The position numbers and the translations under genes are program-made. Source: Chromatiales bacterium (GTDB taxonomy: Bacteria; Pseudomonadota; Gammaproteobacteria; Chromatiales; Chromatiaceae). Taken from it: a stretch of DNA of 64,000 nucleotides. Location of the stretch: contig JANQRK010000008.1 in NCBI GenBank assembly GCA_028284585.1, positions 1,695-65,694 of the forward strand. Direction: 5' to 3'. The notes beneath the pieces were generated by a model. It saw only the letters and a list, made by a program, of their open reading frames with translations. It was not told where the DNA came from and ran no database searches. Shown here piece after piece: positions 5,900 to 46,574 of this stretch. Positions within the stretch are counted from its first letter, which is position 1. Each line of letters opens with the position of its first letter.

Positions 5900-5925
5900 A
5901 ATTCTAGACCCATGCGTGATTGCCC

Positions 5926-12263: not shown

Positions 12264-12598
12264 CCCAACCTTGCTTGACCCAAGGGGCCTGCTACCGCAA
12301 CCGGGGGCGTCAGCATCACCTGACGACACATGGGACACCCAGACTTGGATCATTTTGAGAGTTGTCTTTCGAGACAATACGCTAGCGTGAAGAATCTAGC
12401 GCCGAATACAGGCGATGGCGCTGAATTGCGGGGCATACTCATGCGGCATGCGGTGAATGTGACCACCTTGGCCGCATGGCCTCCCAAGAGGATTTGCCTC
12501 TTGGGAGGGTACGGCCAAGGCATCTTTCATTGCCCTATTCGCAAGATCACGCTATCCGAAACAGGGTCTCAAATGCAGCTGCGTTCGTAGTGACAGGT

Positions 12599-14767
12599 TC
12601 AAGGCGCTGCATCGGCCTTGACATTGTCAATGATGACGACAGTCCTTTCGTCGGAATAGGTCTTTTTGTTGTTGAATCCACCAATGGCGACCCTGTGCTC
12701 GCCGGCCGAGAGTTCGCCGAGGTCGACTTGGAACCTCTGCCAACCGGACGTCTTCCAAGGACCACCGTTTCCGTCACCCCTGATCCGCTTCAGAAAGCTA
12801 CCACCAGGTGCACCAATCAGGTTTCCATCGACAGACAGAAGTGCATCACTGTACTCGTCGCTCTCATAACCTGGGGCCTGGGCTATGCGATAGTCAAAGG
12901 ATAGGGTTACCTTGCTCGGGCTACTCAAGGAAAAGGTCCTCTGCCATCCACCCGACATATCCTGGACTGCGCGGTTGTCCCGGCCGCCCAGCACCACTGC
13001 TAGGAAGCCGTCGCCATTTCGCCAGGCGGCATGTCTTCCCGAGGCGTAACGCGGGTGATTGGTATTGCGGAAAGCATCAGCGACGAACTCGAAGCCCTCG
13101 GTGTCTTCAGTGAAGTCCGAATGAAAAATTGCCGGCCCGTCGTCACCGCGGACGTTGATTCTTACCTCTGCCGTATTGTTCGAAGGATTGTCGTCATTGT
13201 CCGCTGCCGAGTTCACGGTGCTTGTCAGCGTATCCGCTGCCGGCCCGGCTTGTAATCGCATGACGACCGTCCGTGTGGAACTGCTGTCAATGTCGCCAAA
13301 GTCACAGCTCACCTCCGACTGACTCTCAAAACACTGCGCCCCGCCGTCGGCGACGTCGATCATCGCCAAACTCTCTGGTATCGAGATCGCAGCCGTTACA
13401 TTTGTCGCGACGGCCACACCGCTGTTTCTCACCTCCACTCGATACTCGAATTCGCTCAGGACCGTCGTTTCGATCGGGTTCGTCGGAATGATCACTCGAA
13501 CGTCCGTGGTCGCAGGAGGCGGCTGATCAGGGTCGTCAACTTCTGTGATACAGACCGCGCGATCAATATGCGGTTGCATCTGGTCCAAACTGCACTGAGA
13601 GAATTGATCGCTGCCATTGCCGAACGGATTCATAATGAAGTTCCCTGCCGTATTCGCACAGGGTGAGCCGCCCTGATTATCGTGCGGCGCACCGAAGTTG
13701 TGGCCCATCTCATGCGCGACTATCAAGGCTCCCGCCGTGCCTCTACCAGTGGTTTGACTCAGCCCGACACCAAAGGCCTCGCGACACAAGGTGCCGACGT
13801 AGGCAATGCCGACGACGCCACCATTTAGATCTCTCCCGGTAAACAGGTGCGCCAAACCAGGATTGACAAAGTCGCTAGCGGCCACAAAGTCGCTGAACTG
13901 GTCCAGAAGAGTGCCGGCTTGCGAGGAACTCAATCCTCCGTTGCTCCGCAATGCACGAATCTCAGTGACATTGATTTGAACACCCACCTGCTCAGAGTAG
14001 ATGCCGTCAACAATGTTCATACGGGCCACCACAGCGGCATCCGGATTGCTGGGATTGGCGTCGACAAACTGCCTGTCCGCGACCACGGCGATGTCGAGCT
14101 TTCGAGCCGCCGCCGGGAGAGCCTGTCTCAATGTACGCAGCTCGTCCACCAAGCCTTGGTAATCATCCATAGGCCTCGCGCTTGGATGTACCGCACAGCT
14201 TCCCGTACAGGACTCGGTATCTGAAAGCCGATATATCACTGGATACGGCTGGCGCTGTCGTGCCTTTGGTGCCGCAGCGCCTTGCTGATCATCCAGCATC
14301 GGTTCCACTCGGTCGGATGTATCGATGATGTACAGCTCCTCGCCATCCCACATGGTTCCGGAGATCTGCTCTCCCGCACGATTGATGCGTACCCAAGACC
14401 CATCGATGCCTTCGATGTAGCCCTCGTAGGCCGTCATGGATTTTTCGAGTCGCTGTCTCTGCTCTTCGGGCAGATCAGCAATCAACCGGGTATTCGGCTT
14501 GAGGACTACAGCGAACCGCTTTCCAAAGGCCTCGAAAGTCAGCGTGGCCTCAGATGCCTGCTCGGCTTGCTGCGCCGCTTGGGCGTTATCAGTTGATAAG
14601 GAGGGCGGTAGGCCGAACTCCACCGATTGCATGGGCTCATGATGGAGTATGCGGAAATCTTCATCGACGGTGAGGGCACCTTCGTGAACACCATGAGCGA
14701 GTGAGGCTCGCCCTTGAATACCGATACACAGTATTGCTAACAAAATATACGTTGTAGATCTTCTCAT
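12599..14767 (-). CDS. Secreted reprolysin-like (M12B) zinc metallopeptidase with DUF11/Ig-like and C-terminal beta-sandwich domains
   Basis: Signal peptide, prodomain, HEMGHNFGAPHD zinc motif, Met-turn FIMNP, DUF11-like NSAADNDDNPSNNTA; ATG 14767 has a GGAG RBS. Confidence 0.9.
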   Translation of the reverse strand: MRRSTTYILLAILCIGIQGRASLAHGVHEGALTVDEDFRILHHEPMQSVEFGLPPSLSTDNAQAAQQAEQASEATLTFEAFGKRFAVVLKPNTRLIADLPEEQRQRLEKSMTAYEGYIEGIDGSWVRINRAGEQISGTMWDGEELYIIDTSDRVEPMLDDQQGAAAPKARQRQPYPVIYRLSDTESCTGSCAVHPSARPMDDYQGLVDELRTLRQALPAAARKLDIAVVADRQFVDANPSNPDAAVVARMNIVDGIYSEQVGVQINVTEIRALRSNGGLSSSQAGTLLDQFSDFVAASDFVNPGLAHLFTGRDLNGGVVGIAYVGTLCREAFGVGLSQTTGRGTAGALIVAHEMGHNFGAPHDNQGGSPCANTAGNFIMNPFGNGSDQFSQCSLDQMQPHIDRAVCITEVDDPDQPPPATTDVRVIIPTNPIETTVLSEFEYRVEVRNSGVAVATNVTAAISIPESLAMIDVADGGAQCFESQSEVSCDFGDIDSSSTRTVVMRLQAGPAADTLTSTVNSAADNDDNPSNNTAEVRINVRGDDGPAIFHSDFTEDTEGFEFVADAFRNTNHPRYASGRHAAWRNGDGFLAVVLGGRDNRAVQDMSGGWQRTFSLSSPSKVTLSFDYRIAQAPGYESDEYSDALLSVDGNLIGAPGGSFLKRIRGDGNGGPWKTSGWQRFQVDLGELSAGEHRVAIGGFNNKKTYSDERTVVIIDNVKADAAP

Positions 14768-15190
14768 TGGCACTCCAAGTTGGTGGATTGGGAAAGTGAG
14801 ATCCAGTCATATTTTTATTTCATTTAGATAGCTCCACGGCCGACCAGATACGTCCGAAAAATTGATTTCCACAGCTCTGCTTCACGGCCACCGATGGATA
14901 ATTCGCCAATTGGCAACATTGAGATATTGGAGAGTCATGCCACGGATAAGCGAAAAACCGAGATAATTGATAGTTGCTAGGAATATGGACTAGCGAAATC
15001 AACGAATACTCTCCACATCGATGTCCAATAAATGTCGTTCGGCGTCATTCAGATCGATCGTCGAAAACAAACCCAGTTCGAACATCCAGTTAGAGGTACC
15101 GCGGTCGTGCGCCAATGCATCACGCTCGCTTGGATGACCCATGGGTCAAAGCGACCTTAGCGCTTCAACAGGCATTCGGTCTGTTGGATT

Positions 15191-15215
15191 TTTGTAGCCT
15201 ATTTGTAGCCTTTGT
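15191..15215 (-). promoter_or_regulatory. Tandem direct repeat, putative OmpR-family (RstA-like) binding site
   Basis: TTTGTAGCCT repeated at 15191 and 15202 (11-bp period) plus a partial third copy; reads TACA-N7-TACA on the minus strand. Confidence 0.4.
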
Positions 15216-15418
15216 TTCATACATGGATACCTTGTCTAAGGTTTCATTTCATGCACTAGGCCGTTATAAACAGTAGCAATCCGAGAACTATATGAACGAG
15301 AAGCTCGATCTTTGACGGAAAGCGACTAGGTCGCTTACGGCACAGCGAAATGCCGCAAGAGAATGGGGGCTGACGATTGTCAATTCGCCCGAGAGATCAG
15401 TGGCATCGGTTATAGATC

Positions 15419-15454
15419 CCTAAGGAACTTCTGAAAAATCAGAGGTTCCTTAGG
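15419..15454. repeat. 16-bp near-perfect palindrome overlapping the kinase stop codon
   Basis: CCTAAGGAACTTCTGA-AAAA-TCAGAGGTTCCTTAGG, one mismatch. Confidence 0.7.
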
Positions 15455-16787
15455 TGCCTTTGCCGGAGTGCGCCACCTGAGCTTCGGCGGAAGCTGTGGC
15501 CAGGGGCCAGTCCAGGCGAAACCGCGCACCGCCGAGTGGGCTATCCTCGACGGTTACCCTCCCCTTGTGCTTGCGAGCAATGCGGGCAACGATTGCAAGG
15601 CCGAGTCCAGTGCCGCCGGAGATACGAGAACGGCTTGGATCCAGTCGGGTGAAGGGTTCGAAGATACGTTTGTGTTGGTAAGTTGGAATACCTAGGCCGT
15701 CATCGTCAACGGCTAGCCAGAACTCGTCGCCCCGTTTTTCCCAAGCAATCCGTACCCGACCCTGCGCAAAGCGAGACGCGTTACTGACCAGGTTCGATAA
15801 GGCGCGTTGAAAATACACCGGATCCACCTGGGCGCGCAGCGGAATGGTCATAGCTGGCTGGGTAGTGAATTCAATATCCGGGTTCGACTCTCGCTGATTC
15901 TGGACAATCTGCTCGACCAGCGGGTCCACTGCAACCCATTGCAGGGTAAGCAGTGGCGTGCCGGGTTGGAGACGGACATAGCCCAGCACCTCGGCCACGA
16001 GGTTGCGCAAATCGTCGATTGCTTCGTCCATGTCATTCCAGGCCATGCCACGGGGCTCATTCACGTCGACAGCAGCGATCTCGACAGCAAAACTCAAGCG
16101 GGAGAGCGGTGCCCTGAATTCGTGAGCCACGGCTTGCAATAGTTCTTGCTGTTCCTGCAGTAGCTGCTGGATCTCCGCAGCCATTCGGTTCAATGCCAAG
16201 GCAAGATCACCGATGGCATCGGGATAGCGATCATCGGCGCGCACATGCCAATTGCCTTGGCCGATAGCGCGCGCTGCCGACTCCAATGACTTCAACCGCC
16301 TTACCACAGGTATTGTCAGGAGGACACCGAACAAGCCGATGACCAAGGTTGCACCAATCGCAGCAGTCAGAATGTCCGAGGGATAAGGGTCTGCCAATGG
16401 CTCGGGCGGCATAATATGGGCCACCGTCGGGGTACCAGGGATCTTTAGAGTTAATTTGGGGCCGCCCTCGTTCTCGGTTACTACCAGGGGCTCACCCGCT
16501 GCAAGCACCGCCCTGATATCTTCGGGCCAGTCAGCTTCATCCAGCGGTGCCAGAGAGACCTTGAGACGAGACTGCTTGAAGTAGCGCTCTATCTCCTCGC
16601 TCCATTTGCCGCGATCCGTCGCAGCCAGTCTCTGCACCATACTGTGTCCGGTTGTTTGCAGTTCTGCCAGAAGTTCCTCAGTGTCTGGCCGGCCGGGCGG
16701 GTAACGTAACAACCAGTACACAATCGCGGATGCCGCCAGCAAGGCAAGCAGCATGCCGGCGAAAAACCGGAAAAAGAGCTGGATCAT
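15450..16787 (-). CDS. Sensor histidine kinase, RstB/CpxA-like (2 TM, HAMP, HisKA, HATPase)
   Basis: AVAHEFRAPLSRL H-box, NLVSNA, VDDDGLGI, GGTGLGL; ATGA overlap with the regulator. Confidence 0.95.
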   Translation of the reverse strand: MIQLFFRFFAGMLLALLAASAIVYWLLRYPPGRPDTEELLAELQTTGHSMVQRLAATDRGKWSEEIERYFKQSRLKVSLAPLDEADWPEDIRAVLAAGEPLVVTENEGGPKLTLKIPGTPTVAHIMPPEPLADPYPSDILTAAIGATLVIGLFGVLLTIPVVRRLKSLESAARAIGQGNWHVRADDRYPDAIGDLALALNRMAAEIQQLLQEQQELLQAVAHEFRAPLSRLSFAVEIAAVDVNEPRGMAWNDMDEAIDDLRNLVAEVLGYVRLQPGTPLLTLQWVAVDPLVEQIVQNQRESNPDIEFTTQPAMTIPLRAQVDPVYFQRALSNLVSNASRFAQGRVRIAWEKRGDEFWLAVDDDGLGIPTYQHKRIFEPFTRLDPSRSRISGGTGLGLAIVARIARKHKGRVTVEDSPLGGARFRLDWPLATASAEAQVAHSGKGT

Positions 16788-31641: not shown

Positions 31642-32658
31642 ATGGAGACCCTACCTCCCATCCATGGTGAAGACCCCGTATTCCTGGAGGTGGTCGAGGA
31701 AGTCTCTCGCATCGCGGCACTCGACCGGCCCTGCCTGGTGGTCGGAGAGCGCGGCACCGGGAAAGAGCTGCTTACGTCCCGGCTGCACTATCTTTCGCTG
31801 CGCTGGGACGGCCCGCTGATCAAAGTCAACTGCGCCGCGCTGAGCGAATCCTTGCTGGAGACTGAGCTGTTCGGCCATGAGGCCGGCGCCTTCACCGGCG
31901 CGCAACGGCAGCATATGGGACGCTTCGAGCGCGCTGACGGCGGGACGCTGGTGCTGGACGAGATCGCAACGGCGTCGGCCGCGGTGCAGGAGAAAGTCCT
32001 GCGCATCATCGAATACGGCGAGTTCGAGCGAGTCGGCGGTCGCGAGACCATAAAGGTGGACGTAAGGGTGGTCGGCGCAACCAACGTCGACCTCCCCGGT
32101 CTTGCGATCGAAGGCGAGTTCCGGCCAGATCTCTTGGATCGCCTCGCGTTCGAGGTAGTCACCGTGCCGCCACTGCGCGCCCGCCCGGCGGACGTGACGG
32201 CGCTCACTGACGAGTTCGGTCTAGAGATGACTCGGACATTGGGGCGCGACCTCTATCCGGGTTTCAGTTCGCGCGCCCGCGCCGCGCTGCTCTCCCACGA
32301 TTGGCCCGGCAATGTGCGCGAGCTCAAGAACGTGGTCGAGCGCGCGGTAAGTCGAGCAAGAAATCTCCAGGCGCCGATCGACGCCTTGGTGATCGATCCC
32401 TTCGACAGTCCCTGGCGGCCCGGTATCGCCACCCACTCGCCCCCAGCCGCAACACAGGCCCGAACTGCAGCCTCGACCGCCGCAGCCGAGCGCCCGACGG
32501 CCACCGGATTCTCGGAGCGAGTCGCCGCCTTCGAGCGCCAACTGCTGGTAGACGCAATGTCTGAAACGGGCAATAACCAGACCAAGACCGCTCGCCGTCT
32601 CGACCTCAGCTACCACCAACTGCGCCGCCTTCTCGCCAAGCACGACTTGCGGAACTGA
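31642..32658 (+). CDS. pspF: Phage shock operon sigma54 activator
   Basis: GERGTGKE, ELFGHEAGAFTGA, LVLDE, WPGNVRELKN, C-terminal HTH; no N-terminal regulatory domain; divergent from pspA. Confidence 0.96.
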   Translation: METLPPIHGEDPVFLEVVEEVSRIAALDRPCLVVGERGTGKELLTSRLHYLSLRWDGPLIKVNCAALSESLLETELFGHEAGAFTGAQRQHMGRFERADGGTLVLDEIATASAAVQEKVLRIIEYGEFERVGGRETIKVDVRVVGATNVDLPGLAIEGEFRPDLLDRLAFEVVTVPPLRARPADVTALTDEFGLEMTRTLGRDLYPGFSSRARAALLSHDWPGNVRELKNVVERAVSRARNLQAPIDALVIDPFDSPWRPGIATHSPPAATQARTAASTAAAERPTATGFSERVAAFERQLLVDAMSETGNNQTKTARRLDLSYHQLRRLLAKHDLRN

Positions 32659-32838
32659 CAACTTATCACCAACGTGCCTCCCGCAAGGTCGGCCAAGCGG
32701 CTTGTTGGCAAGGACAGCGCATACCAATCAGCCCAGCAAGGCCGAATGTGGACGATCCCAGGGCAGCAAGTGCAGTCACCGACTTTTGGAAATCATCTTG
32801 ATCCGCAGCCGCCTTTTTTGCACTGCCCCGCAATGGCT

Positions 32839-32855
32839 CTAGACATCATGTCTAG
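32839..32855. repeat. 17-bp palindrome sharing a 13-bp core with the IS110 remnant end
   Basis: CTAGACAT-C-ATGTCTAG; ACATCATGTCTAG recurs at 41427-41439. Confidence 0.6.
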
Positions 32856-32881
32856 TTGACCTGGTGCCCTGGACCATCGTT

Positions 32882-33754
32882 TTACGCGGCAAAGAGCTCC
32901 CGCGCCAACGCGCGCACACCGGTTATTTGGCCACTCAGTTGATCGCTGACTGCATCGACATAGGGACTCATCTTGCCATTGCGCAGTGCTTGGTGCTTGG
33001 GCGCCTGGCGTGGTGCCTCTTCATCATCAAGCAGGATCGAGGCCATGGCCATGGCGGCCCGGACCACGCTGCCGATAGGCGTTGGTGCATCACCATCCTC
33101 TGACCCACCATGCGTCATCGCGTCAAGGATGGGTTCGGGAAGCCCCCAGGCGCGCCCGAGATGGGCACCGGCGAGTACATGGTCGATTCCCAAACGGTCA
33201 CGCAGCAAGCCGCCAAGCGAGCGCTCAGCGTCGGCCTGCTGCAACGCAAATATTGCATCCATTTCGCGCGGCAACTGGCTCGCCAGCCAGACCAAACCGA
33301 TGTTGTACAACAAGCCGGCCGTGTGTGCCGCTTGCGGGTCGACGGCCGCATCCATCATCGACCGGGTAGCAAACGCCTGTGCAGCCGAGGCCGTCAGCAT
33401 CGCATGCATCCAGTAGCGTTCACCATCGAAACCGGGACACCGCCGGAGATCGAATGGAGCCGCCACGGTCAAGGCGATCCCCACAGTGCGTACGATATCC
33501 CGACCCAGTCGTGCACAGGCGCCGGTAAGTGAATCGATCGGACTGGCGGGCGACGACCAGCCGGAATTGGCCAAGCTGACCAGGCGCAGGGTGACCGAGG
33601 GAAAGCGCTCCACCACCTCGACCAACTGTTGCAGATCATTGTCGCCGCTGGAAAGTGCCTGCAACAAAAATGGTGCACCCGGTGTCAGTACGGGCAGACC
33701 GTTCGCGTTCAGGCGATCGAGCACATCGTCTGTTGTCATCGGGAGGTCGCTCAC
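32882..33754 (-). CDS. HDOD-domain protein
   Basis: RLVSLANSGW, ACARLGRD, AHTAGLLYNIG, LGIDHVLAGAHLGRAWGLPE. Confidence 0.9.
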   Translation of the reverse strand: MSDLPMTTDDVLDRLNANGLPVLTPGAPFLLQALSSGDNDLQQLVEVVERFPSVTLRLVSLANSGWSSPASPIDSLTGACARLGRDIVRTVGIALTVAAPFDLRRCPGFDGERYWMHAMLTASAAQAFATRSMMDAAVDPQAAHTAGLLYNIGLVWLASQLPREMDAIFALQQADAERSLGGLLRDRLGIDHVLAGAHLGRAWGLPEPILDAMTHGGSEDGDAPTPIGSVVRAAMAMASILLDDEEAPRQAPKHQALRNGKMSPYVDAVSDQLSGQITGVRALARELFAA

Positions 33755-33769
33755 AACAAAAACCCGCCG

Positions 33770-36700
33770 CTAGGCAGAGGCGTTGAGCCCCGCCATCGCA
33801 GTCGAGAGGAAGTCTGTCGTGACCAACCCAGGTATCGCTGCGGGTTCAACCGGCGCACTGAAGTAATCGCCCTGAGCATCATCGCAACCGATCCCCGATA
33901 GCGCAGCGACCTCGTCCCGGGACTGAACGCCCTCGGCAACGACTCGGCATCCCATGGCGTGGGCAAGGCCGGTAACCGCCCCCACCAAGGTCGCTGCCGT
34001 CGGATTCTTGAGCATGGCGTTGACGAACTGCTGGTTTACCTTTAGACAATTCACCGGCAGATAAATAATCGATGCCAGCGAAGAATATCCGGTACCGAAG
34101 TCGTCGATCACAATATTGATCCGATGATCCCTGAAATCGGCGAATATGGCCTCGTGGTCATCACCGAACTGCATGGTGCTCTCGGTGATCTCCAATTCCA
34201 GATCCACTGCCGACAGGCCATTCTCGTGCAGGGTACGCACGAAGAACGCGAGCAGATCCGGATTGCGGAAATGCATCGGTGAAACATTCACCGCCACGGT
34301 AAACTCGGGCAGATCGCTGCGTCGCCACTCCGCCAATTGCTGGCAGGCGGTTTTAATTGCCCACTCGCCGAGCTGATCGATGACACCGGTCCGTTCGGCG
34401 ATCTTGATGCACTCGTCAGATGTCAACAGGCCACGTGCTGGGTGCCGCCATCGCAGCAGGGCCTCGACGCCGCTGACACGACCCTGCTGAAGATTGACCT
34501 TCGGCTGGTAGACGAGTTCGAGTTGCTCGCCCTCGATCGCAGCCTTCAAGTCGCCTTCGATCTGCAAGCGCTGCGAGGCATGCAAAGTCAGTTCGGGGTG
34601 ATAGAAGGCATAGCGATGCTTGCCAGCCTTCTTGGCTGCATACATGGCACTGTCGGCTGCCTTGAGCAAGCTCTGAGCGTCTGCACCGTCGTCGGGGAAT
34701 CGCGCGATCCCGACACTGGTCCGCGGATGCCGCAGTGCACCACCCAGCTCAAGCGGTTCCGCAACCGCCTGCAGACAGCGCTCGGCAATGTTCGCCAGGG
34801 CCTCGTCATCACTCCAGCCGTCGATCAGCACGCAAAACTCGTCACCACCGAGGCGGGCGGCAAAGTCCGACTCGCGCAGCAGTGCCTTGAGCCGTTGTGC
34901 CACGGCCTTCAGCAACTGATCACCAACGTCGTGCCCAAGACTGTCATTGACGTCCTTGAACGAGTCCAGATCCAGATAAAACAGGGCAAACGACTCCCCG
35001 CGCCGTGCGGAGGCCTTCAGTTGGTTTTCGAGATGTCGATGGAAGTAGGCCCGGCTGGCAAGGCCGGTCAGGGTATCTTCGTATGCCAACTGGCGGATGC
35101 GCTCCTGGTTTTCCCGCTGCCGCGTGACGTCCTGGACAGTACCCAGCACCGTCTGTGGCTCGTCTTCCGGGCGGCCGATCTCCTGGTGGATGACGATGAC
35201 CTTGTTGACATCTTCGAGTAAGCGATAGTCCATGACCCGGTTCGCGTCCCGGTCGACAGAGGCCCGGATATGTTGGCGTAGGTAATCGCGGTCTTCCGGA
35301 TGCACATGCTCGAGATAGCCATCCAGCGTAAGATCGCATTGCGTATCGCCGATACCACACATGCTGGCCAGCTGCTCTGAGACAGTGAATACGTCTTCCT
35401 CCTCGCTCCATCGCCAGTAACCCAGCTTTGCCATGCGTTGTGCAGCAGAAAGCTGTCGCTGCGACTCGCGCAATGCGCGGGCATCTGCTGCGGCGCGCAG
35501 CTGGAAGAGTATCCGCTGGGCGGTCGCCGCATAATTGAGCGGCTTAGACTCGAAGCCATTGGCACCGGCGGCGAAGGCAGAACGCGCCGCGCCCACGTCG
35601 TTGAGCCCGGTGACCATCAGGATCGGGACGTGTTTCATCGACCGTAGCTGGCGCAGTCGACGACAGGTCTCGAAACCGTCCATGTCGGGCATCAGCCCGT
35701 CGAGCAGGACCAACTCGGGTGGATTGTGTCGACAGATATCGATCGCCTCTGCACCGCCCGTTACCTCCCGCACATCGAAGCCCTCGACGGCCAGTGCTTC
35801 GGCCGTTGTGGCACGAAACGCGGCATCGTCGTCAACCAGCAGGAGGGTCGGCCCGTCCACCGCGCTCGCCGCCGGCAGCGGTGTCACCGACGGCGACGTC
35901 TCACGCTGGGCCCTGAGTGCCTGCAGGACCGCCGGGATGGCATTGCATAGCTCGCCAACCCCATGCTGTGCCTCATCCAAGCGCCCCGCCCGGGCACTGG
36001 CTTCGGTCATGGCGCACAATGCCGAGAACGCCGCGGCACCCAGGTTGGCACTGCCCGACTTGAGGCTGTGCGCAAGCCGCCGGACCGTCTCGGCATCGCC
36101 TTGGGCGCAGGCCTGGCGCAGTGCGTCCAGGTCGTCCGGCACGCTCTCCAAATAGCGATCAATCGCCTTGCCAAGCACATCCCTACCGCTATCGGCGCCG
36201 ATTGCACGCAATTGTTCGATGATTTTCTCATCGAGCACATCGGCCTCGGCGGCCCTGACAATGGTGGCTGGCGGCGCTGTGGCGTTCGGGACGGTCGCGA
36301 CCGCTGTCGCCGCGGGCAGCCATGTGTTCAGCAAGCCCGCCAATGCCCCCTGGCTGAATGGTTTGCTCAGGTAGTCGTCCATGCCGACCGCCATACAACG
36401 CTCCTGCGTGCCTTCCTGGATGTCGGCCGTCAGCGCGATGATGGGCACGCGCTGGCGTTGCTCGCGCTGTTCCCATTGGCGAATCGCCTCGGTCGCGGCG
36501 AACCCGTCCATCTCCGGCATGTGACAGTCCATCAACACCAGGTCATAGGTCTGCCGCGCCAGCGCTTCCATCGCAAAATTGCCGTTGTCCGCGACATCCA
36601 CGCCAAACCCCAGGCCCTCGAGCATGCCGACCGCCACTTCTTGATTGACCAGGTTGTCTTCGGCCAACAGGATGCGGAGGTCCCGTTGCGTTACCGGCGG

Positions 36701-38737
36701 CGTTGTCGCCGGCGGTTCACCCGGCTGCTCACCCACCAACCGCAGCAGGCAGCTGCGCAATCGCTCCTGGCGCACCGGCTTGTCGAGATAACAGTCGATG
36801 CCATATTCCTTTGCCTTCGCCGCTTGGTCGGCCAACCCACCCGAACTGAGCAGGACGAGATGCATCCGGGGCATGTCGGATGCTGCGCGAATCGCTGATG
36901 CCAGTTCCATGCCGTCCACGTCCGGCATGTGCAGGTCGAGCAACACCATGTCGAACGCCGACCCCGATGCCGTCGCACGGCGCAGGCTCTGCAATGCGTG
37001 GAATGCCGAGCCGACGCATTCGTCCGACATGCCCCAAGCGGTGACTTGCTCGTGCAGGATCTGCCGATTGACCTCATGGTCATCGACCACCAGCACACGC
37101 ACCCCGTTGAGACGCTCGGTCGGTGGTGCCGGCTGCGCCGGCGTCAAGGCCTCACGCAATGGGATGCGACATTCGAAACAGGTGCCCTTCCCCGCGTCGC
37201 TGTGCAACTCGATCGTGCCTTTCAACAATCGGACCAGCTGTTTGACGATGGCCAGTCCCAGGCCGGTACCGCCGTACCGCCGGGTCGTCGAGGCATCGGC
37301 CTGGGTGAAGGCCTCGAAGATACGCGAGCGCAACCCATCGTCGATGCCCGGCCCGGTATCCATGACGCTGAAATTCAACCAGTAGCCACCCGATGATTCG
37401 GCGATGACCTGGGCCTTGAGGCGCACCTCACCCTGCTCGGTAAACTTGACCGCGTTGCCTAACAGATTGACCAGGACCTGGCGCAGCCGGACCGGATCAC
37501 CGCGCACGTCGCTGTGCATATTCGGCGGTAGGTCGGCGAGCAGCTCCAGACCCTTGCGGTGGGCCGATTCGGCAAGCAATTCGAGCGCATCCTCAAGCAG
37601 CTCGCGCAGGTCGAAGTCCTCATCGACTAGTTCCAGTCGACCCGCCTCGATCTTGGAGAAGTCGAGGATGTCGTTGAGGACGGTGAGCAGTGATTCGGCG
37701 GAGCGATGCGCCGTGGCGGCCAGGCGTTGCGCACGCTCGCTTAGACCGGCGTCCAGCAGCAATTCGGTCATCCCCAGTACACCGTTCATCGGGGTACGTA
37801 TCTCATGGCTCATGGTCGCCAGGAACTCACTCTTGGCACGACTCGCGGCCTCGGCGGCCTCTTTGGCATCGACCAGTTCCTGGGTCCGATTCTCGACCTC
37901 GGTCTCCAGATTCTGCTGGTGCAGCAACAGCCTTTCCCGGCTGGCCCGCAGGTTTGAGCTCATTTGCGCAAACACCTTGCCGAGCTCACCGATCTCGTCG
38001 TTGCGCTTAATTTCGATCGCAGCTGTGTCGTCACCGCGGCCGATCTGCTCGGCATGACGGGACAACTGCTTGATTGGCCTGACCAGGTTGCGCGACACCA
38101 GAAAGGCCATCAAGAGTGCGATAAACAACATCCCCAGCAGGGCCCAGGCGGTGGTGATGAGACTGCTACGCACGCCCTCATCCCTGATCCCATCCAGGCG
38201 CTGGCGCACCTCGCTGACGTCGCCTTCGATCGTGGTCAACGACAGCCCCAGACGCAGCGTGCCGATTCGCTCATCGCCAATGTTCAGGGGCAAGGCGATA
38301 TCGACAAGACCCGGCGCCTGCTGGAACAACAGGCTCTCAGCGGCAATGGCCGCCGCAGTCAAGCCGTCGTCACTGACCTTGCCAAAACCCCTTAGCTCTT
38401 CGGTACCGTCATGGATGAGCTTACCGTCTGCTCCGATAATGTAGACATACAACACCTCATCCAACGCCAGTGCGGTACTGATGAGCTCATAGATGCCCTG
38501 CATGTCGTATTCGTAGAGCGGATTCACCAGGTTCTCGGCCAGTAACTTGACCATGCTCTCACCACGGTCCCGCAACTGTGACAGCAGACGCTGCTCCATC
38601 TGTTCGGCCGTGATCGCCGACAGCGCTTGTGCACTGCGCTGAAATTGCGTGGACAAGGCCGTGGCCAATGTCACCACGGCCACCATGACCAGGGCGAGAA
38701 TGGTCAGGGTATAGCGTACCTGGAGGGGTATCCGCAT
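33770..38737 (-). CDS. Hybrid sensor kinase fused to GGDEF-EAL (TM-HAMP-HisKA-HATPase-REC-REC-HPt-REC-PAS-GGDEF-EAL), 1655 aa
   Basis: [10 protein letters not shown]; [10 protein letters not shown]; three REC aspartate motifs (LLDLHMP, LMDCHMP, LLDGLMP); [13 protein letters not shown]; HVHPEDR; RLGGDEF; VEALLRW; [10 protein letters not shown]. Confidence 0.95.
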
Positions 38738-38739
38738 TA

Positions 38740-39708
38740 TCAGAGGTCGGCCCTGATGGCCTCCCTGATCTGCCGTGCCCGTTCGATCCCGGCTTGTACC
38801 TCGGCGTCGATTTCTTCGAATCGCTTGGTCCGCTGGTAACTGTGTAGCACGGAGTTCGCCGCCGGGTCGTTATGCGCAGCCAAGAGCGCCGCTTTCAGGC
38901 GCTCTTTGACATCGGGCCGCAGACCCTTGCGCACCAGTTCAAGTGCCCTTGGGAAGGGCTCACTGCGGTGAAAGATGTGCATGGAATCCCTGAAGGTACT
39001 GGGCAGGTGATCCTCTTTTTCCCAATCCAGGTTGGCAAAGGCACCGGCATCTACCAGGCCCTTGTGAACCCAGGTGGACATATTGATCTCCTCCTTGCCG
39101 AACACATAGCCGACCATACCGCTGGTCGGCACATCACGTGGCGTGTCCAGGCGTTCGAGCTGCAGGCCAGCATCGAGCAGAATCGCTGCAGGTACGAAGA
39201 AACTGGAAGTTGAGCCGGCATCCTCAAAGGTGATGACACGCCCCTTGAGGTCGGCCAGCGTCTTTATGCCTCTATCCTGACGGGCGAAGAAGACGGTATG
39301 GTACCAGGGCATGCCTTTTTTCTGTTTCAATAGCAGGATCTCGGCGCCCGCCTTCTCTTCAAATTCGATCGCCGAAAAGACCGTCTCGGTCACCCAGTCG
39401 ACCCGCCCCCGTTTCAGATAGCGGACCATCTGGCGGTTGTTGCGCGCCATCAACACCTTGACCTGGTCGATACCGAGGTCGCGCATGTGCTCGACCGCAT
39501 ATTGGGCCATCGGCTTCAGGTAACGGTAGTGTTTCTTTGGGTTGCTGCTGACTTTGCCGATGATCAGCGTCCGGTCGCGGTCGGATTCGGCAGCCGATAC
39601 GCCGCCACAGACCACCACCAGCGCACAAACCAGCAGCATCGGGAGTGCCCGATCGACCGGCATGGCGAAGTATCTAAGCAGGCGCATAGCAGCTGCCCTC
39701 GAAATCAA
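38740..39708 (-). CDS. PhnD/PtxB-like phosphate/phosphite/phosphonate-type periplasmic binding protein
   Basis: Signal peptide, [43 protein letters not shown]. Confidence 0.88.
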
Positions 39709-41021
39709 AAATCGAGCTGCGCGCGCAACTGAAAGATGCTGGGGTCGTCGTCTCCGGCCAGATCACCGGCGTCATCCGCGGCAGCATCGTTGTCGACAAT
39801 AATGTAGTTGGCCATGAACCGAAGGTGTGGATTGACATACCAATTGAGTCCCAGCGTAATCTGTTCGGCCTCGCCGCCAGAGATGTCATTGTCACTCAGG
39901 TCCAGCGAACTGTAGCGTAGCGCGAGTTCCCAAGCACCGCTGTCAGTGACCGGGTTGATACGCCCGAACTTACCACTCTTGGGCTTGTAGATACGCGATT
40001 CACCAGTAAGAAACCAGCTACCGTAGACATACCAACCGTCGAAATCGAGGCCGGACTGACCGGCATGACGATCGATGGTCGCGGCGACATATTCACCCTG
40101 CAGCGAAAACGGCCCCTCGACCCATGCCGCCTCCAGCCCGACCAAGTTGATATGGCTCACGTCGGCGATGTCGTCGGTATTGAGATACTTTACATCGGTG
40201 ACATGGCTCTCGGGCCGCGCATTGAACTTGATCTCGTCGGTATCGTCCGGCTCGCGGTGTGACACTGCCGCCCCCAGGTGCAAGGCGCGACGGTCGTCGC
40301 GCAAGGGCGCATAGGTCACACGGCCCGTCACACCCCATCCCTCATCACCCTCATCCTTGACATCATCATCGAACGACTCGCCGAACAGCCCAGCGGCTGC
40401 GGTCCAGCCGTCGCCACGCGACTGTACGCCGACACCGACATGCCGACCTGGCGCAAACTCGTTCGGCAATGCACGTTCCATGAACGTGATGTATTTGGAA
40501 CTCGTCAGCTCTTCTAAGCTGAACGGCTCCTTGAACTGACCAATTTTCACTTTCGTTGGCCACCAGCCCCGATACTCGATAAAGGCATCCTTGACGTCTG
40601 CGTCGCCACCACCGAAATCCACGCCAAACTCATACCCGTAGTCGGAGAACAGCACCCCCTCCACATCCAACCGGGCACGGCGCAACTCTGTGCCGTTACC
40701 CAAGTCGTTCTGGTCTTCTTGGTAATAGGCGCTGTCCACCATCAGCCGTCCGCCGAGCTCGAAACTAAAGGCGCCGTCATAAGTACTGGCCTCCAGACCG
40801 CCTTCGGTCTTCACTTGGACCTGCTGGTCTCGATCCGCCGCGGCCGCGCTGTCGTCCAGTGCCGCGACCAGCGAGTCGTATTGCTGTTGGGTCAGAGTGC
40901 CGTTCTGTAGCAGGATCTCCAGGAGCTGGTAGAACTCCTCCTGACCGGCGAACACAGGGGTGGCTATCAGATAGGAAAAAAAGCAGGCAGCGACCACCTG
41001 CTTGATGCGCGAGTTGGGCAT
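39705..41021 (-). CDS. OprO/OprP-like phosphate-selective porin
   Basis: LRRARL, GQFKEPFSLEELTSS, FMERA, FSLQGEY, GAWELALRYS, LGLNWY, terminal QLDF; ATG 41021 with GGAG RBS. Confidence 0.92.
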   Translation of the reverse strand: MPNSRIKQVVAACFFSYLIATPVFAGQEEFYQLLEILLQNGTLTQQQYDSLVAALDDSAAAADRDQQVQVKTEGGLEASTYDGAFSFELGGRLMVDSAYYQEDQNDLGNGTELRRARLDVEGVLFSDYGYEFGVDFGGGDADVKDAFIEYRGWWPTKVKIGQFKEPFSLEELTSSKYITFMERALPNEFAPGRHVGVGVQSRGDGWTAAAGLFGESFDDDVKDEGDEGWGVTGRVTYAPLRDDRRALHLGAAVSHREPDDTDEIKFNARPESHVTDVKYLNTDDIADVSHINLVGLEAAWVEGPFSLQGEYVAATIDRHAGQSGLDFDGWYVYGSWFLTGESRIYKPKSGKFGRINPVTDSGAWELALRYSSLDLSDNDISGGEAEQITLGLNWYVNPHLRFMANYIIVDNDAAADDAGDLAGDDDPSIFQLRAQLDF

Positions 41022-41113
41022 GAATTGCTCTCCAGGGGTGGGTGCCACGATCTGGCACACTCCTGGCAGCTATCGGCTAATCGGCTTGGTTTCTTTAGGA
41101 AGCAAAAGCTACT

Positions 41114-41439
41114 CCGCGACCGGACGAGGCGATGCAGCTCGGCATTCAAATCACCCGACCTCAGCAGCCGCACCAGCTTCAGCACATCACGGCGGTCCGT
41201 CTTGACCCGCTCGCTGGCCTTCTTCGGGATCAACGACGGGGCCACCACCTGGCAATCATGCCCGGCCGCGATCAGCTGCCGATACAACCCGTAACTATAC
41301 GGCCCTGCCTCGTAGCAGAACAGCAGCAACATGCCGCCAAATTCCTCATGCAACCACTTCAGCCAGCGCCTCACGGCTTGCGGTTCGTTATAACCCACGT
41401 GCGTTGAGGCTGGGCAGGTCAAAAGAACATCATGTCTAG
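41114..41439 (-). mobile_element. IS110-family transposase remnant (internal fragment of DEDD domain plus probable end)
   Basis: FCYEAGPYSYGLYRQL...VVAPSLIPKK..ERVKTDRRD..KLVRLLRSGDL; both N- and C-termini missing; boundaries approximate. Confidence 0.85.
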
Positions 41440-41452
41440 CCCGAATATCTCA

Positions 41453-43443
41453 GTGCGCCGTGAAAAGGCGCGTTCTCTCAGTGGGTGAGATTCCCACCCG
41501 GCAACTATCGCTCCAGCCGGTAGCAATCGGAGCGGCTGTGGAGGTAACGAAGCAGTCGAAGCCTCTGGTGTAGAGGGTCATTTTGGTGACTTGGCGAGCA
41601 TGCAGGCCGAACGAGCAGTGAACGCTGAGCAGGCCTCGAAAAGGGTAATGCGGAAGCCGACCCGCCTGACATACGGGGAAGGCCGCCGTTGCTGGGGAAG
41701 CGAGCGATGAGCGCACCCAGCGGTTCCGCCGGGGTAGTGGCGACGGCATGCATGCACAAGGGAGGACGACGCAACACGGGAAGCCCCAGGCGGTGGTGGG
41801 ACGTGCCCGCCAACCGGTCGCCCGCGAGGGCCAGTCCGGGCTGCTTGAGGTGGCGGGAGGCCCGTAGTACCGATGAAGCCGGGTAATGTCGGTAGAGGCA
41901 AGGGGCCTCAGTTCGAGGGCAGTGTTGAAAGAAGTGAGGACGAGGAGACTGGCATGGGCCTACAAGCTCCAAGCAAGGTACAGAAACTTCAGCAGACACT
42001 TCATGCGAAAGCGAAGGAGTTGCCCGATTTTCGCTTCTACGCCCTGTACGACAAGCTCTACCGGGAAGACATGCTCACCCATGCCTACTGGCTGGTCCGC
42101 CACAATGCTGGCAAGCCGGGAGTTGATGGTGAGGATTTCGCGGCCATCGAAACGTACGGGGTGGAGCGGTGATTGGGTGAACGGGCGCAAGCCTTGAGGG
42201 AGAAGCGCTACCGGGCGAGTCCGGTGCGCCGGGTATATATCCCCAAACCGAATGGCCAGCAGCGCCCGTTAGGTATACCGACGATCCGGGATCGGGTGGT
42301 CCAGACGGCGGCAGTCTTGGTACTGACGCCGATCTTCGAGGCCGACCTGCAACCGGAGCAGTATGCCTATCGGGAAGGACGCAATGCCCATGACGCAGTA
42401 CGTCAGGTGCACAAGCTGCTCAACACAGGTTACACGGACGTCATCGATGCAGACCTGTCAGGCTATTTCGATTCGATACCCCATGCCGAGTTGACGCAGA
42501 GCGTAGCGCGGCGGATCAGTGATCGCTACGTCCTTGCGCTGATCAAGCAATGGCTGGTGGTATCGGTCGAGGAGGAGGACGGGCGTGGCCGGCGGAAGCG
42601 GACGACGGTGGCGAAGGACAGTAAGCGCGGTATCCCGCAAGGGGCGCCGATCTCGCCGCTGCTAAGCAACCTGTATATGCGCCGATTCGTGCTGGGGTGG
42701 AAAACGTTGGGTTTGGAGGCACGCCTGCAGGCCCGGATCGTCAACTATGCTGATGATTTCGTCATCTGCTGCCGAGGGACGGACGAACAAGCCATGGAGG
42801 CCATGCGGGCGATGATGCAAAGGCTCAAGCTGACGGTCAACGAAGAAAAGACCGGGCGCTGCCGGATCCCGCAAGCGCACTTCGACTTCCTGGGCTACAC
42901 CTTCGGGCGGTGCTTTTCGGCCAAAACGGGGCGAGCCTACATTGGCACAAGTCCCTCGAAGAAGAGCATCAAGAAGGTCTGCCGTACGATCAGCGAGGCG
43001 ACCAGCCGTCGGTGGCTATTGAAGGACGCCGAGGAGCGAGTGGCCACCCTGAACCGCATCCTTGTGGGCTGGGCGAACTACTTCCACCTTGGGCCTGTCA
43101 GCAAAGCCTACCGGGCGGTGGATAGCCACGCGAGCGAGCGGCTGCGCCGGTGGTTGCGTAAGAAGCACCAATGGCCGGGGCAGGGTACGGCACGATACCC
43201 TGACGAGCATCTTTACGAGGAGTTGGGGTTGCAACGGCTGCCGGTGCGGACACGTGATCTTCCGTGGGCGAAGGCATGAGACCTCGTCCGAGCGCCGGAT
43301 GCGGGAAATCTGCACGTCCGGTGCGACGAGCGGCGACTGGAAACGGGACTAGGGTACGGACTGAGGCACCGGCTTCTAGCGAAAGCTGCCGGCAACGGCT
43401 ACTCCCCTGTACCTGTGGTTACCGCGCCAGTCGTCGACTCTAC
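41453..43443 (+). mobile_element. Group II intron (no endonuclease domain)
   Basis: 5' GTGCGCCG; domain V GAGCGCCGGATGCGGGAAATCTGCACGTCCGGTGCG (about 43290-43325); long domain VI ending GTCGACTCTAC; internal RT ORF. Confidence 0.93.
41954..43279 (+). pseudogene. ltrA: Group II intron reverse transcriptase/maturase interrupted by an in-frame TGA (42170-42172)
   Basis: ATG 41954 with GAGGAG RBS; [40 protein letters not shown]; both ORF-track pieces are in the same frame. Confidence 0.88.
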
Positions 43444-43738: not shown

Positions 43739-45001
43739 CTATCCGGCCAGTAGTAGCGCGTCTGATCGGTCGAGCGCGCATTCTGCTTCTTCGACGATCG
43801 TAAGGCTGAGCTCGGGTGACGCGGCCCTCATCCCGAGCCGGCCGAACGCGGGTATCTCTTCGTGCGGCGGGGGGCGTCGGTACTGCGAGCCAATCGTGGC
43901 ATGCCACTCCGCGACCAAGAGGATATCGGTGTAGTCCGCTTCTCCAGGGTGTTCATAGCTCCAGTGTCCACACAGTGCAGCGGCCTGGACTGCCGCCCGA
44001 GGCAGGTCCCACATGGTGAGCAGGATACGACCCAGTTCGGCGCGGTTGCCATGGATGACGTTGTCTAGCGCCGCGGGGTCGCCGAGATCCGAATGCTGCT
44101 CGGTGTAGCTCAACAGGACGGGTTCCGCGATGCCGTGCAGTAGGCCGACTAGGTGCGCAAAATCGGGATCGAAGTGTTCGCACTGGCGGGCCAGCACTCT
44201 ACTGATCGCGGCCACCCGGCGGCTGCGCTTTCCCCATTCAATTACGCGCTGGCGCACAATCGGTGACTCGCAGCGCAGCGTTTCACGCAATACGCAGTGC
44301 GCGGCGAGTGCGTAAGTGTGCTCGTTACCTAAGCGGATGACCGCCTCGCGGAGGCTGCGCAGTGGAACACGCTGCGGGCCCACACCTTTGGCAGCGCGCA
44401 GGATTTTAAGGGTCAATGCTGGACAGGCCGCAAGGGCGTCGGCCATGGTCGACGGGTTGTTGATGTTGGCTGCGAGTGAGCGCCCAATGCGGACGGCTAT
44501 CTCGGGGTCGGATGGTACCACTATGCGCCCACCGTTGAGGTCGTGAAACACGTCGAACAGCAGCGGATGGGTCGCACTGTCATCGAGTAGCTCGTTTGGC
44601 GTATTTACAGGTAGGTTCTCTTCGACCACCATGGTTTTGGTTGGTTTAGGCGTGGTCAGGTCGTCAAGTAACTGCTCATCGAGAAGTAGATAGCGTACAT
44701 CGCTGCGTGCACCCACTCGGTAGCGCGATGGGCGTAGGCGTGAGACGGGCCCGGCGGCGGCTTTATCTGTGTCGCGAACGCAGTGGGCGATACCGTCGGC
44801 CGCGATCAACTCCAGCTCACCCTCCAGTAGAAACAATTGGCGTGGCTCGCGATCACCGAGTTCCAGCACGCATGACCCGCTTGCAGCTTCGTGCACTTGG
44901 GCCTGTTCGGCAATGCGATTGAGTTGCGTCTCGTCCAGGCCGGCCAGGCGATCGAAACGCCGCAGGGCATCGTTGATGAGGGTTTGCTTTGGCACAGACA
45001 T
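43739..45001 (-). CDS. cNMP-binding-like domain + HDOD protein (paralog 1)
   Basis: LFLLEGELEL...RLRPSRYRV; PALTLKILRAA, AVIRLG, LVGLLHGI, ILLTMWDLP. Confidence 0.88.
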   Translation of the reverse strand: MSVPKQTLINDALRRFDRLAGLDETQLNRIAEQAQVHEAASGSCVLELGDREPRQLFLLEGELELIAADGIAHCVRDTDKAAAGPVSRLRPSRYRVGARSDVRYLLLDEQLLDDLTTPKPTKTMVVEENLPVNTPNELLDDSATHPLLFDVFHDLNGGRIVVPSDPEIAVRIGRSLAANINNPSTMADALAACPALTLKILRAAKGVGPQRVPLRSLREAVIRLGNEHTYALAAHCVLRETLRCESPIVRQRVIEWGKRSRRVAAISRVLARQCEHFDPDFAHLVGLLHGIAEPVLLSYTEQHSDLGDPAALDNVIHGNRAELGRILLTMWDLPRAAVQAAALCGHWSYEHPGEADYTDILLVAEWHATIGSQYRRPPPHEEIPAFGRLGMRAASPELSLTIVEEAECALDRSDALLLAG

Positions 45002-45116
45002 TCAGTTCACCCCCGGTGCCCCATCTGGCATCGGGTCGATGGGAATCGATGTTATCGCTGTGCCGGTGGAATGGCTACGCTTCGGCCGGCTCAAGCGGCC
45101 CCCAGCGTGCCGGAAA

Positions 45117-46370
45117 TCACGCGTTTAGCTGGCGCCGCGCGGTCTCGATCTCTTCCTGGGCTTCGTTCAAGACTTCCAGGCCACCATCGATTTGCTCCTG
45201 AGTCAGGCCTAGCCTGTCCAAGGCGGGCACCTGAGCGGGGTCGAGATCGCCACCGATGCCCTCGTGCAGTTGGGCAACGATCACCAGGTCCGCAAGGTCG
45301 GCGGGCCCGGATTTAGCGCGATACCAGTTCTCGGCCTCTTTGGCGGCGTTGACCAGGTCAGAGGGGAGCTGCCATTTGGACAGGATCATGCCACTGAGCT
45401 GGGTGCGCAACGCTTGGATGCTCGATTCCAATGCCACCGGATCGCCTGCGACCTCAGGGAACTCGCGCGCATAGCCGATGACTGCGACCACGCCGATATC
45501 GTGTACCAACCCTGCTAGCAGCGATTCATGGCCATTGAAGTCGCCCACTTTTTCACCCAAGACTTGGGTCAGTACGGCGATCCGACGACTATGCTCCCAC
45601 AGCTCGAGCATGCGCTGTTCCAGATCTTTAGAGCCAGTCCGAAATAACTCGCGCAGTGCGAAGGTAATAACCAAGACCTGGGTATCTTGCAGCCCGACCC
45701 GGGCCACCGCCTCGACCACGGTCGAGATGCGCGAAACACCGCCATAGCGAGCGCTGTTGGCCGCTTTGACGATCTTCAGCGCGATCGCCGGGTCGGTCTC
45801 GATCACCTTCGCGACCCGACGCGCGTCGGCATCCTCGTCATTGACTGCTTCTCCGATGCGCAGTGCGACCAGCGGTAGGCTGGGCAGTAGCAGGCGATCT
45901 TCGTTCAAGTCTTCATAGATTTGCAGTGTCAGTCGGTTCTCTGCGGCCATGTGGCCGAGATCGTCTTCCTCCTCGACCTGATAGGTCTCGAGAGTCAGCG
46001 ACGAGGTCGGTTCGAACTTGCCGAGCGACTGTTCGAGCATGGCATTATCGATGCGCAGATAGCGTATCGAGGTCTCGGCCACCACCTGATAGTGGCTGGG
46101 ACGCAGCCTAGCCAGAGGCGCTAGGGCTGAGGGATCGGTGTGGTTGACGATCTTCTCTCCCCCGTCTTCGGCCACGAGCCGGCAGCTGCCCTCGAGCAAG
46201 TACAGGGTGGTTTCATCGGTGGCACCTAGTGCCAATAGCTCTTTTCCGGGCTGTTCTTCGCGTATTGAGAGCTCCTGTCTGAGCCGTTCAAGGCGGTCTT
46301 GCGGGATGTCACGCAGGGTACTGAGGCGCCGCAGGACGGCAAGGGAAGGGTGGTTGGAGCTATCTGTCAT
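45117..46370 (-). CDS. cNMP-binding-like domain + HDOD protein (paralog 2)
   Basis: LYLLEGSCRL...RLRPSHYQV; LPSLPLVALRI, DPAIALKIVKAANS, LAGLVHDIG, ILSKWQLP; start refined to ATG 46370. Confidence 0.9.
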   Translation of the reverse strand: MTDSSNHPSLAVLRRLSTLRDIPQDRLERLRQELSIREEQPGKELLALGATDETTLYLLEGSCRLVAEDGGEKIVNHTDPSALAPLARLRPSHYQVVAETSIRYLRIDNAMLEQSLGKFEPTSSLTLETYQVEEEDDLGHMAAENRLTLQIYEDLNEDRLLLPSLPLVALRIGEAVNDEDADARRVAKVIETDPAIALKIVKAANSARYGGVSRISTVVEAVARVGLQDTQVLVITFALRELFRTGSKDLEQRMLELWEHSRRIAVLTQVLGEKVGDFNGHESLLAGLVHDIGVVAVIGYAREFPEVAGDPVALESSIQALRTQLSGMILSKWQLPSDLVNAAKEAENWYRAKSGPADLADLVIVAQLHEGIGGDLDPAQVPALDRLGLTQEQIDGGLEVLNEAQEEIETARRQLNA

Positions 46371-46574
46371 CGCGGCCCTGGCTGTTTCATACTTCTCGTT
46401 CCCTAGGCATCGGCGAGAGCTTGAGAGTCTTGAACCTGCGATGTGCACTAGGCATCGGCCGTAAGGCCTAGGCTAGAGCGATTTCGGGCGGGGTTGGCGC
46501 GCGGACCGAGCGGCAACTCGGGCGGCGGCCCCATCAGGCGGATCGCTGTGCATTCTTCCCGCTGACCGGCGAGG

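Follow-up and report, generated by a model that had tools for sequence, protein, structure and literature searches.

The receptor family closest to the locus described here was reportedly first described in 2018 by Teixeira et al. (J Biol Chem 293:10767) from Xanthomonas. In that work the periplasmic binding protein XAC2383 is said to regulate the cyclase XAC2382 by binding its periplasmic Cache domain, the crystal structures reportedly point to anionic, phosphate-containing compounds as the preferred ligands, and homologous pairs with other output modules are said to occur in several phyla. To our knowledge one member of the family has been studied and no physiological ligand has been established. 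The output is cyclic di-GMP (c-di-GMP), which generally governs the motile-to-sessile switch. Here an operon encoding a porin, a stand-alone periplasmic binding protein, a 1655-aa membrane sensor and an HDOD protein was analysed in a stretch of 64,000 nucleotides from a Chromatiales bacterium (assembly GCA_028284585.1, contig JANQRK010000008.1), hereafter the window. The operon is read as a sensing unit and not a transporter, in which the stand-alone binding protein is a receptor fed by the porin and the output is c-di-GMP; we give this computational reading a probability of about 0.75.

Four co-oriented open reading frames (ORFs), all on the minus strand, occupy positions 32882-41060 of the window (Table 1). 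An earlier note on this DNA had claimed a four-gene operon in the order porin, binding protein, kinase-cyclase and HDOD, and both the ORFs and the Pfam matches bear this out, the domain order of the sensor being HAMP-HisKA-HATPase_c-3xResponse_reg-Hpt-PAS-GGDEF-EAL. The spacers it gave for two of the junctions were also correct: 2 bp separate the binding-protein stop (38742-38740) from the kinase ATG at 38737, and the GTG of HDOD at 33754 follows the stop of the kinase after 15 bp. The ATGA overlap claimed for the porin and binding-protein genes is absent, as the junction reads GAT TTT TGA TTTCGAGGGCAGCTGCT ATG, and the sole overlap possible there is a TTGA from a TTG start at 39708. The ATG at 39687 is the likelier start of the binding protein. 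It lies 17 nt past the porin stop, is preceded by a GAGGG Shine-Dalgarno sequence and gives a 315-aa product equal to the public gene call P0005.

Table 1. Positions in the window of the operon genes, their domains and the bordering repeat and transposase remnant.
Feature	Position	Strand	Evidence
OprO/OprP-family porin, 438 aa from ATG at 41021	39705..41021	-	Pfam PF07396 (Porin_O_P), E 7.5e-84
N-terminal periplasmic helical hairpin, porin aa 27-64, motif LLxLLxxNGTLTxxQYxxL, SHOCT-like	40830..40943	-	conservation and AlphaFold2 model
PhnD/PtxB-superfamily periplasmic binding protein, XAC2383 homologue, 315 aa	38740..39687	-	Pfam PF12974 (Phosphonate-bd), E 1.3e-38
Sensor head: first transmembrane helix (TM1), periplasmic single-Cache (PDC) domain aa ~31-192, TM2	38093..38737	-	homology and AlphaFold2 model
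Sensor phosphorelay core: HisKA/HATPase_c, receiver domains REC1 and REC2, Hpt, REC3	35453..37837	-	Pfam and motif check
Sensor output: PAS, GGDEF, EAL	33851..35386	-	Pfam and motif check
HDOD protein, stand-alone, 290 aa, last operon gene	32882..33754	-	Pfam PF08668, E 1.4e-28
Palindrome CTAGACATCATGTCTAG, ~27 nt after HDOD stop	32839..32855	.	sequence search of genome
Truncated IS110-family transposase remnant, directly upstream of porin promoter region	41143..41422	-	Pfam DEDD_Tnp_IS110 partial, profile 29-113 of 155, E 3.9e-4

The binding protein, which has a Sec signal peptide ending near VSA/AE, matched the PDB entries 5UB3, 5UB4, 5UB6 and 5UB7 far best (phmmer, residues 40-298, E 3.3e-65), and 5UB3 is XAC2383 of Xanthomonas citri (Table 1 in PMC10942540). 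Its other PDB matches (PtxB, ArrX, HtxB, AioX and PhnD) ranged from 8e-9 to 9e-3. The first 270 residues of the sensor are 35% identical (E 2e-36) to the XAC2382 orthologue, the head of which is annotated as sCache_3_2, and a profile of 34 sensor heads matched this orthologue with an hhalign probability of 99.9%. AlphaFold2 (AF2) folded the periplasmic part as a single Cache/PDC domain, with a predicted local distance difference test score (pLDDT) of 89.2, for which Foldseek returned the sensor domains of WalK, CitA, DctB and KinD; the HAMP domain follows at aa 213-265, just past the head as delimited in Table 1. Since the binding protein matches XAC2383 and the sensor head matches the XAC2382 orthologue, the operon pair is, as judged by homology of both partners, a member of the XAC2383-XAC2382 family and not a new one. 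The gene of the XAC2383 orthologue in the Xanthomonas locus overlaps the sCache_3_2-HAMP-GGDEF-EAL gene by 4 nt.

A synteny survey, which the earlier note had suggested as a check, was run on 58 loci from a degenerate-pattern scan of species-representative genomes; a maximum-likelihood tree was made for 64 binding proteins and porin status was scored for 63 related loci. The order of binding protein and Cache-head sensor, with the sensor gene 3′ on the same strand, was kept in 55 of the 58 loci, with a median gap of -1 nt and overlapping genes in 31 of the 55 pairs. The sensor outputs vary across the loci, being a hybrid kinase that carries one receiver or two, a HAMP-GGDEF-EAL part, or the two kinds together. 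A Porin_O_P gene was found immediately upstream on the same strand in 43/58 loci and divergently in one more, and the larger set, drawn from at least four phyla, had the porin as direct upstream neighbour in 47 of 63 loci, which span Pseudomonadota, Thermodesulfobacteriota, Acidobacteriota and Eisenbacteria. The upstream gene in porin-less loci was unrelated housekeeping, such as asparaginase, NadA or SelO, and the genes downstream of the sensor were not conserved and held no ABC components. Because the same order recurs in dozens of unrelated genomes, it is more than chance. The porin-linked state was clustered on the binding-protein tree with 7 changes, as low as in none of 500 shuffles, and the starred branches of the tree force at least 4 changes of porin state. 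An unbiased class-level sample had the family in 11 of 400 genomes scored. In this sample the porin is present in all 5 other genomes whose binding protein is 52% identical or more, and the five with one at 46% identity or less, Xanthomonadaceae among them, are without it. The hosts of porin-linked modules are mostly sulfur-oxidising symbionts with their free-living relatives and marine sulfate reducers, and include Thiodiazotropha, tubeworm endosymbionts, Sedimenticolaceae, Thiorhodococcus, Halothiobacillus and Ca. Venteria; this bias may reflect habitat (sulfidic sediments) or function.

The names given to the binding protein by Pfam and NCBIfam are transport names, and the earlier note had itself raised a remote ABC transporter as the counter-case to its proposal. 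Such a transport component, delivering to an ABC importer encoded elsewhere and only incidentally adjacent to the kinase, is extremely improbable here. The operon and its flanks are without ABC permease and ATPase genes, as had been claimed, and without linked PhnC or PhnE, and the best match to a PhnE-type permease anywhere in the genome scored 38 bits against an NCBIfam cut-off of 216.7 bits. The genome is 94.75% complete, so a permease could sit in the missing part. The binding protein itself scored far under the PhnD equivalog cut-off (TIGR03431, 88.6 against 261.1 bits) and below the subfamily cut-off (TIGR01098, 90.7 against 112.05 bits), its pairing with a Cache sensor is conserved, and the genes surveyed immediately around the 58 related loci included no ABC gene. 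The genome has just one other PF12974 gene (contig C50, locus L003, 7684-8520, minus strand), and this also directly precedes a gene for a membrane HAMP-PAS-GGDEF-EAL protein (5149-7617) with no ABC genes. A paralogue of the same sensor type was considered for the C50 pair and rejected, as its periplasmic domain resembles the Cache head only weakly (hhalign probability 43%); the pair (L003:5149-8520) may be a second, more distant combination of binding protein and sensor.

All signature motifs are present in the sensor: the H-box (SHEIRTP from aa 310), the three receiver Asp pockets (LLDLHMPD from aa 599 in REC1, LMDCHMPE from aa 735 in REC2 and LLDGLMPD from aa 1011 in REC3), the Hpt histidine (HSLKS, H890), the GGDEF motif at aa 1297 with its I-site RESD (RxxD), and the EAL metal ligands (EALLR at 1425 and DDFGTG at 1545). 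The same parts are encoded by two ORFs in a gammaproteobacterial metagenome-assembled genome (L018), one for a histidine kinase (HK) with HK-REC-REC-Hpt and one with REC-PAS-GGDEF-EAL (10858-15889, 22-nt overlap), an arrangement that is either a true split or an assembly frameshift; in L016, as in the window, a single polypeptide holds them all. On the strength of this two-ORF arrangement the 1655-aa protein reads as a putative hybrid kinase to which its c-di-GMP response regulator has been fused, which fits a relay ending at REC3.

In the mechanism proposed, the OprP-like porin would admit a phosphate-type anion to the periplasm, be it orthophosphate, a condensed phosphate or a small phosphorylated compound, and the transporter-less PhnD-superfamily binding protein would bind it. 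The binding protein would dock on the periplasmic single-Cache domain of the sensor and alter the kinase activity through HAMP, phosphate would pass within the one polypeptide from the H-box His (His310) to REC, to Hpt His890 and to REC3, and REC3 would set the balance of the PAS-GGDEF-EAL module and hence the c-di-GMP level. Within this scheme we infer that the two proteins dock, which anion is bound, in which direction the output responds, how the phosphotransfer steps follow one another and any part that the HDOD protein plays. What was observed is the domain content, the homology of both partners, the conserved three-gene order, the lack of a cognate transporter and the kinship of the porin with pst-linked porins; apart from the domain content, these are the findings that lend support to the central idea of the earlier note, namely an outer-membrane-to-c-di-GMP relay through a binding-protein receptor.

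The porin has a signal peptide of about aa 1-26 and a Porin_O_P barrel at about aa 87-438, matched OprP (2O4V) with a phmmer E of 1.6e-44 and OprO (4RJW) with 4.9e-40, and was modelled by AF2 as a beta-barrel with pLDDT 84.7. Mapped through an alignment of ~30% identity, the OprP residues R34, R59, R60, S124, S125, K126 and R133 are kept and the constriction residues Y62, D94, Y114 and K121 are changed to R, K, K and E. The periplasmic residues K15, K25, K30 and K74 of OprP are lost. R62, K94, K114 and E121 are near-invariant across 43 module porins, and as a signature specific to the module they were discarded, being common to the pst-linked relatives described next. Twenty porin relatives, 40-48% identical, were sampled from genomes without this binding protein. 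Six of these stood directly upstream of a PstS-type gene (PBP_like_2) and three upstream of a ~750-aa BPD_transp_1 permease, taken as PstC-like, and several adjoined a kinase or response regulator. The pst-linked porins have R62 and K114 in 9/9, K94 in 6/9 and E121 in 4/9. A motif of ~35 aa after the signal peptide is likewise found in all module porins and in the pst-linked porins of the same clade. Since the pore pattern and the N-terminal motif are both shared with pst-linked porins, they mark a clade of phosphate-uptake porins and not the sensory module. The module thus appears to borrow its porin from a phosphate-uptake clade, and this probable origin is the strongest hint at hand that the signal is of phosphate type.

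The binding pocket was mapped from the ligand-binding residues of PtxB, Y49, Y94, S124-T125-S126 and H155 (PMC5700983). In the alignment the STS motif corresponds to S159-T160-S161 and the hinge Tyr (PtxB Y94) to Y129, both conserved family-wide, and the position of H155 falls outside the aligned region. K52 belongs to the loop of lobe 1 which in PtxB caps the pocket; together with K123 and D156 it is kept in 58/58 binding proteins outside Xanthomonadaceae. By alignment the anion site looks intact.

Several observations weigh against the reading of the operon as a porin-fed, phosphate-responsive sensing unit. Residue Y49 of PtxB, a ligand, aligns to N84, a position occupied by N or K in this clade and by A in Xanthomonas. 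The binding protein is only ~38% identical to the Xanthomonas orthologue, and K52, K121, K123, K124 and D156, which are invariant or nearly so outside Xanthomonadaceae, are replaced within this family; as these clade-specific residues are replaced there, the ligand may differ, and so may the specificity from that of XAC2383. No adjacent porin was found in 16 of the 63 loci. A simple consensus scan for a Pho box upstream of the 43 module porins gave background scores (8.79 against 8.77 of 14). In the sensor, two acid-to-amide changes affect the EAL domain (33851-34552), KxD (KID) being KVN and EGVE being EGVQ. The eight related sensors examined, one being undetermined, keep D and E at these positions, the sister in locus L016 included, and the phosphodiesterase activity of the window sensor may have been weakened by recent attenuation.

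The replaced phosphite-ligating Tyr also bears on the nature of the signal. With the same architecture the signal could be a non-phosphorus oxyanion (arsenite/arsenate, thiosulfate, sulfite or selenate), for which the PF12974 sensors AioX and ArrX are precedents: AioX-AioS is a documented combination of a PF12974 binding protein with a sCache-like kinase and senses As(III). ArrX is about as close to the window protein as PtxB is (9e-9 and 8e-9), the protein has a weak match to a putative selenate binding-protein model, and the hosts are mostly sulfur oxidisers and sulfate reducers. XAC2383 is nevertheless by far the nearest solved relative (E 3e-65, against 6e-3 for AioX), the STS anion motif is still in place, and elsewhere the porin clade is linked to pstS and pstC. 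The operon has no linked arsenic, sulfur or selenium enzyme genes, and neither an AioR-type sigma-54 regulator nor oxidoreductase genes (aioBA/arr/arx) were found next to it; the sigma-54 activator that stands beside it is PspF-like, adjoins pspA and is convergent with the operon. An oxyanion without phosphorus is unlikely on this balance.

The loci lacking a porin raise the further question of its part in the operon. An ordinary phosphate-uptake channel could merely share the operon while the pair senses something unrelated to its cargo, and the pore residues and the N-terminal motif do belong to the clade and not to the module. The porin clade is also the more widespread, occurring in 66/401 genomes (E<=1e-40) against 11/400 for the binding-protein family, mostly elsewhere and with pst loci included. 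We consider such a bystander quite improbable. The porin gene stays immediately next to the pair, on the same strand, in 47 of 63 loci from four phyla with neighbours otherwise unconserved, and the similarities of porin, binding protein and Cache domain co-vary (rho 0.34-0.59). PstS and PstC-like genes of its own are present elsewhere in the genome, as are two further Porin_O_P genes, all on contigs other than that of the operon. A porin that supplies the sensing pair remains the preferred reading.

The N-terminal hairpin of the porin was modelled by AF2 as two helices (27-39 and 45-64) with a core pLDDT near 90, and Pfam SHOCT matches were sub-threshold only, with E 1e-4 and 0.02 on two relatives. 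Its motif was also seen in L098, L099, L100, L102, L107, L112, L093 and L094; OprP and the paralogue on contig C34 of this genome appear to be without the hairpin. Repeatedly, the porin gene in this clade directly precedes one for a binding protein, which is PstS where the locus serves uptake and XAC2383-like where it is sensory. It is a speculative and rather doubtful idea that the hairpin might tether the cognate binding protein under the channel, giving a path from outer membrane to binding protein to transporter or sensor, with the sensory module having arisen when a sensory binding protein took the place of a transport one under an unchanged phosphate porin. Were this so, cells could sense external and not bulk periplasmic phosphate species.

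The HDOD gene had been counted as part of the operon. Its membership stands, but the gene is not conserved and recurs downstream of the sensor in L016 (Thiorhodococcus minor) alone among the surveyed loci, by which it was ruled out as a conserved fourth component; it is probably a lineage-specific accessory. The four-gene operon of Thiorhodococcus minor is identical in its make-up, with proteins 54-76% identical to those of the window. The binding protein of the window is sister to that of Thiorhodococcus minor (Chromatiaceae), though another genome (G370) is placed in the family of this one, and the operon orthologue was missing from the 23 same-genus genomes searched (best E 4e-14, 27% identity).

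On the upstream side of the operon the IS110 remnant is followed by a group II intron reverse transcriptase (42173-43279) and then by two further HDOD genes in tandem (43739-46448), one with a cNMP-binding domain. This tandem pair is conserved in 23/23 congeners and makes, with the HDOD gene of the operon, three HDOD genes within 14 kb. Synteny with the congeners, followed at five of their loci, ends at the pair. The operon side showed no synteny in these loci and no clean empty site was found in same-genus genomes; apparent 'PspF' matches in the congener loci were dismissed as synteny, since they reflect merely generic AAA+ similarity. The absence from congeners, the sister relation to Thiorhodococcus minor, the synteny break and the mobile-element debris indicate that the operon was probably acquired horizontally. 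There was no G+C anomaly across it.

A half copy of the palindrome CTAGACATCATGTCTAG lies at 41427-41439, adjoining the IS110 remnant on its outer side. The resulting 13-bp repeat flanking the operon was rejected as a target-site duplication, as it is part of the palindrome and its 13-mer has four genome copies, two of them as the full palindrome; the copies outside the window are at C60:4535 and C107:13604. The palindrome is probably a repetitive extragenic palindrome (REP)-like element or an IS110 target motif. On its downstream side the operon is followed by pspF and pspA. A scan of 32600-41500 for sigma-70 promoters and intrinsic terminators gave nothing exceeding the shuffled expectation. 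A perfect inverted repeat, GTGCCA-N5-TGGCAC (41042-41058), was observed ~20 nt upstream of the porin start and just before a GGAG ribosome-binding site, and could be an operator or an RNA hairpin.

What the locus adds to the XAC2383-type pair is an outer-membrane tier in a c-di-GMP sensing pathway. As the nearest relatives of the conserved porin serve the Pst phosphate importer, its presence narrows the likely signal of such pairs to phosphate-type anions. Porin-preceded pairs prevail in a large sister clade that includes symbionts of lucinid clams and tubeworms and marine sulfate reducers, and Thiorhodococcus minor DSM 11518, with its identical four-gene operon, is a cultured organism for testing the proposal. 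For the present genome the operon would be an acquisition through which the phosphorus status outside the cell may control c-di-GMP. The conserved porin tier, with its apparent descent from pst-type porins, may be undescribed: a literature text search, with the 2018 XAC2383 study outside its reach, found no paper on a porin with a binding protein and a c-di-GMP sensor, and a 2021 review of binding proteins in signalling makes no mention of porins.

Among known systems, NspS-MbaA of Vibrio cholerae had been put forward as the precedent for this operon. The logic is the same there, as in TorT-TorS and LuxP-LuxQ, in that a binding protein in the periplasm acts on a kinase or c-di-GMP enzyme of the membrane. 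The parallel is by analogy only, the binding-protein families being unrelated, the sensor domains different and no porin linked, and the closest precedent is instead the homologous Xanthomonas system. NspS and LuxP belong to families unrelated to that of the window protein. TorT is a Peripla_BP_1 protein (2021 review of binding proteins in signalling).

Compared with OprP and OprO of Pseudomonas aeruginosa (2O4V and 4RJW), which are phosphate- and diphosphate-specific, the window porin is of the same Pfam family and shares R34, R59, R60, R133, S124, S125 and K126. It differs in the changed constriction residues, the lost periplasmic lysines, the extra N-terminal hairpin and the lack of a detected Pho box, and it is encoded ahead of a sensory and not a transport binding protein. 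AioX-AioS-AioR, and likewise ArrX/ArxX, resemble the operon in having a transporter-less PF12974 binding protein as receptor for a sCache-like kinase. The similarity is remote (AioX E ~6e-3, ArrX 9e-9), and the window is without the AioR-type sigma-54 output and the arsenic enzyme genes, its output being c-di-GMP.

The system most alike is XAC2383-XAC2382, with a homologous binding protein, the same TM-sCache-TM-HAMP head, abutting or overlapping genes, no ABC transporter, and c-di-GMP enzymes as output. The Xanthomonas locus has a SpoU methylase gene upstream in place of the porin, and its sensor passes from HAMP to GGDEF-EAL, whereas that of the window has a His-Asp-His-Asp relay inserted and fused. 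The clade residues K52, K121, K123, K124, D156 and N84 differ between the two binding proteins, and the window carries an extra HDOD gene.

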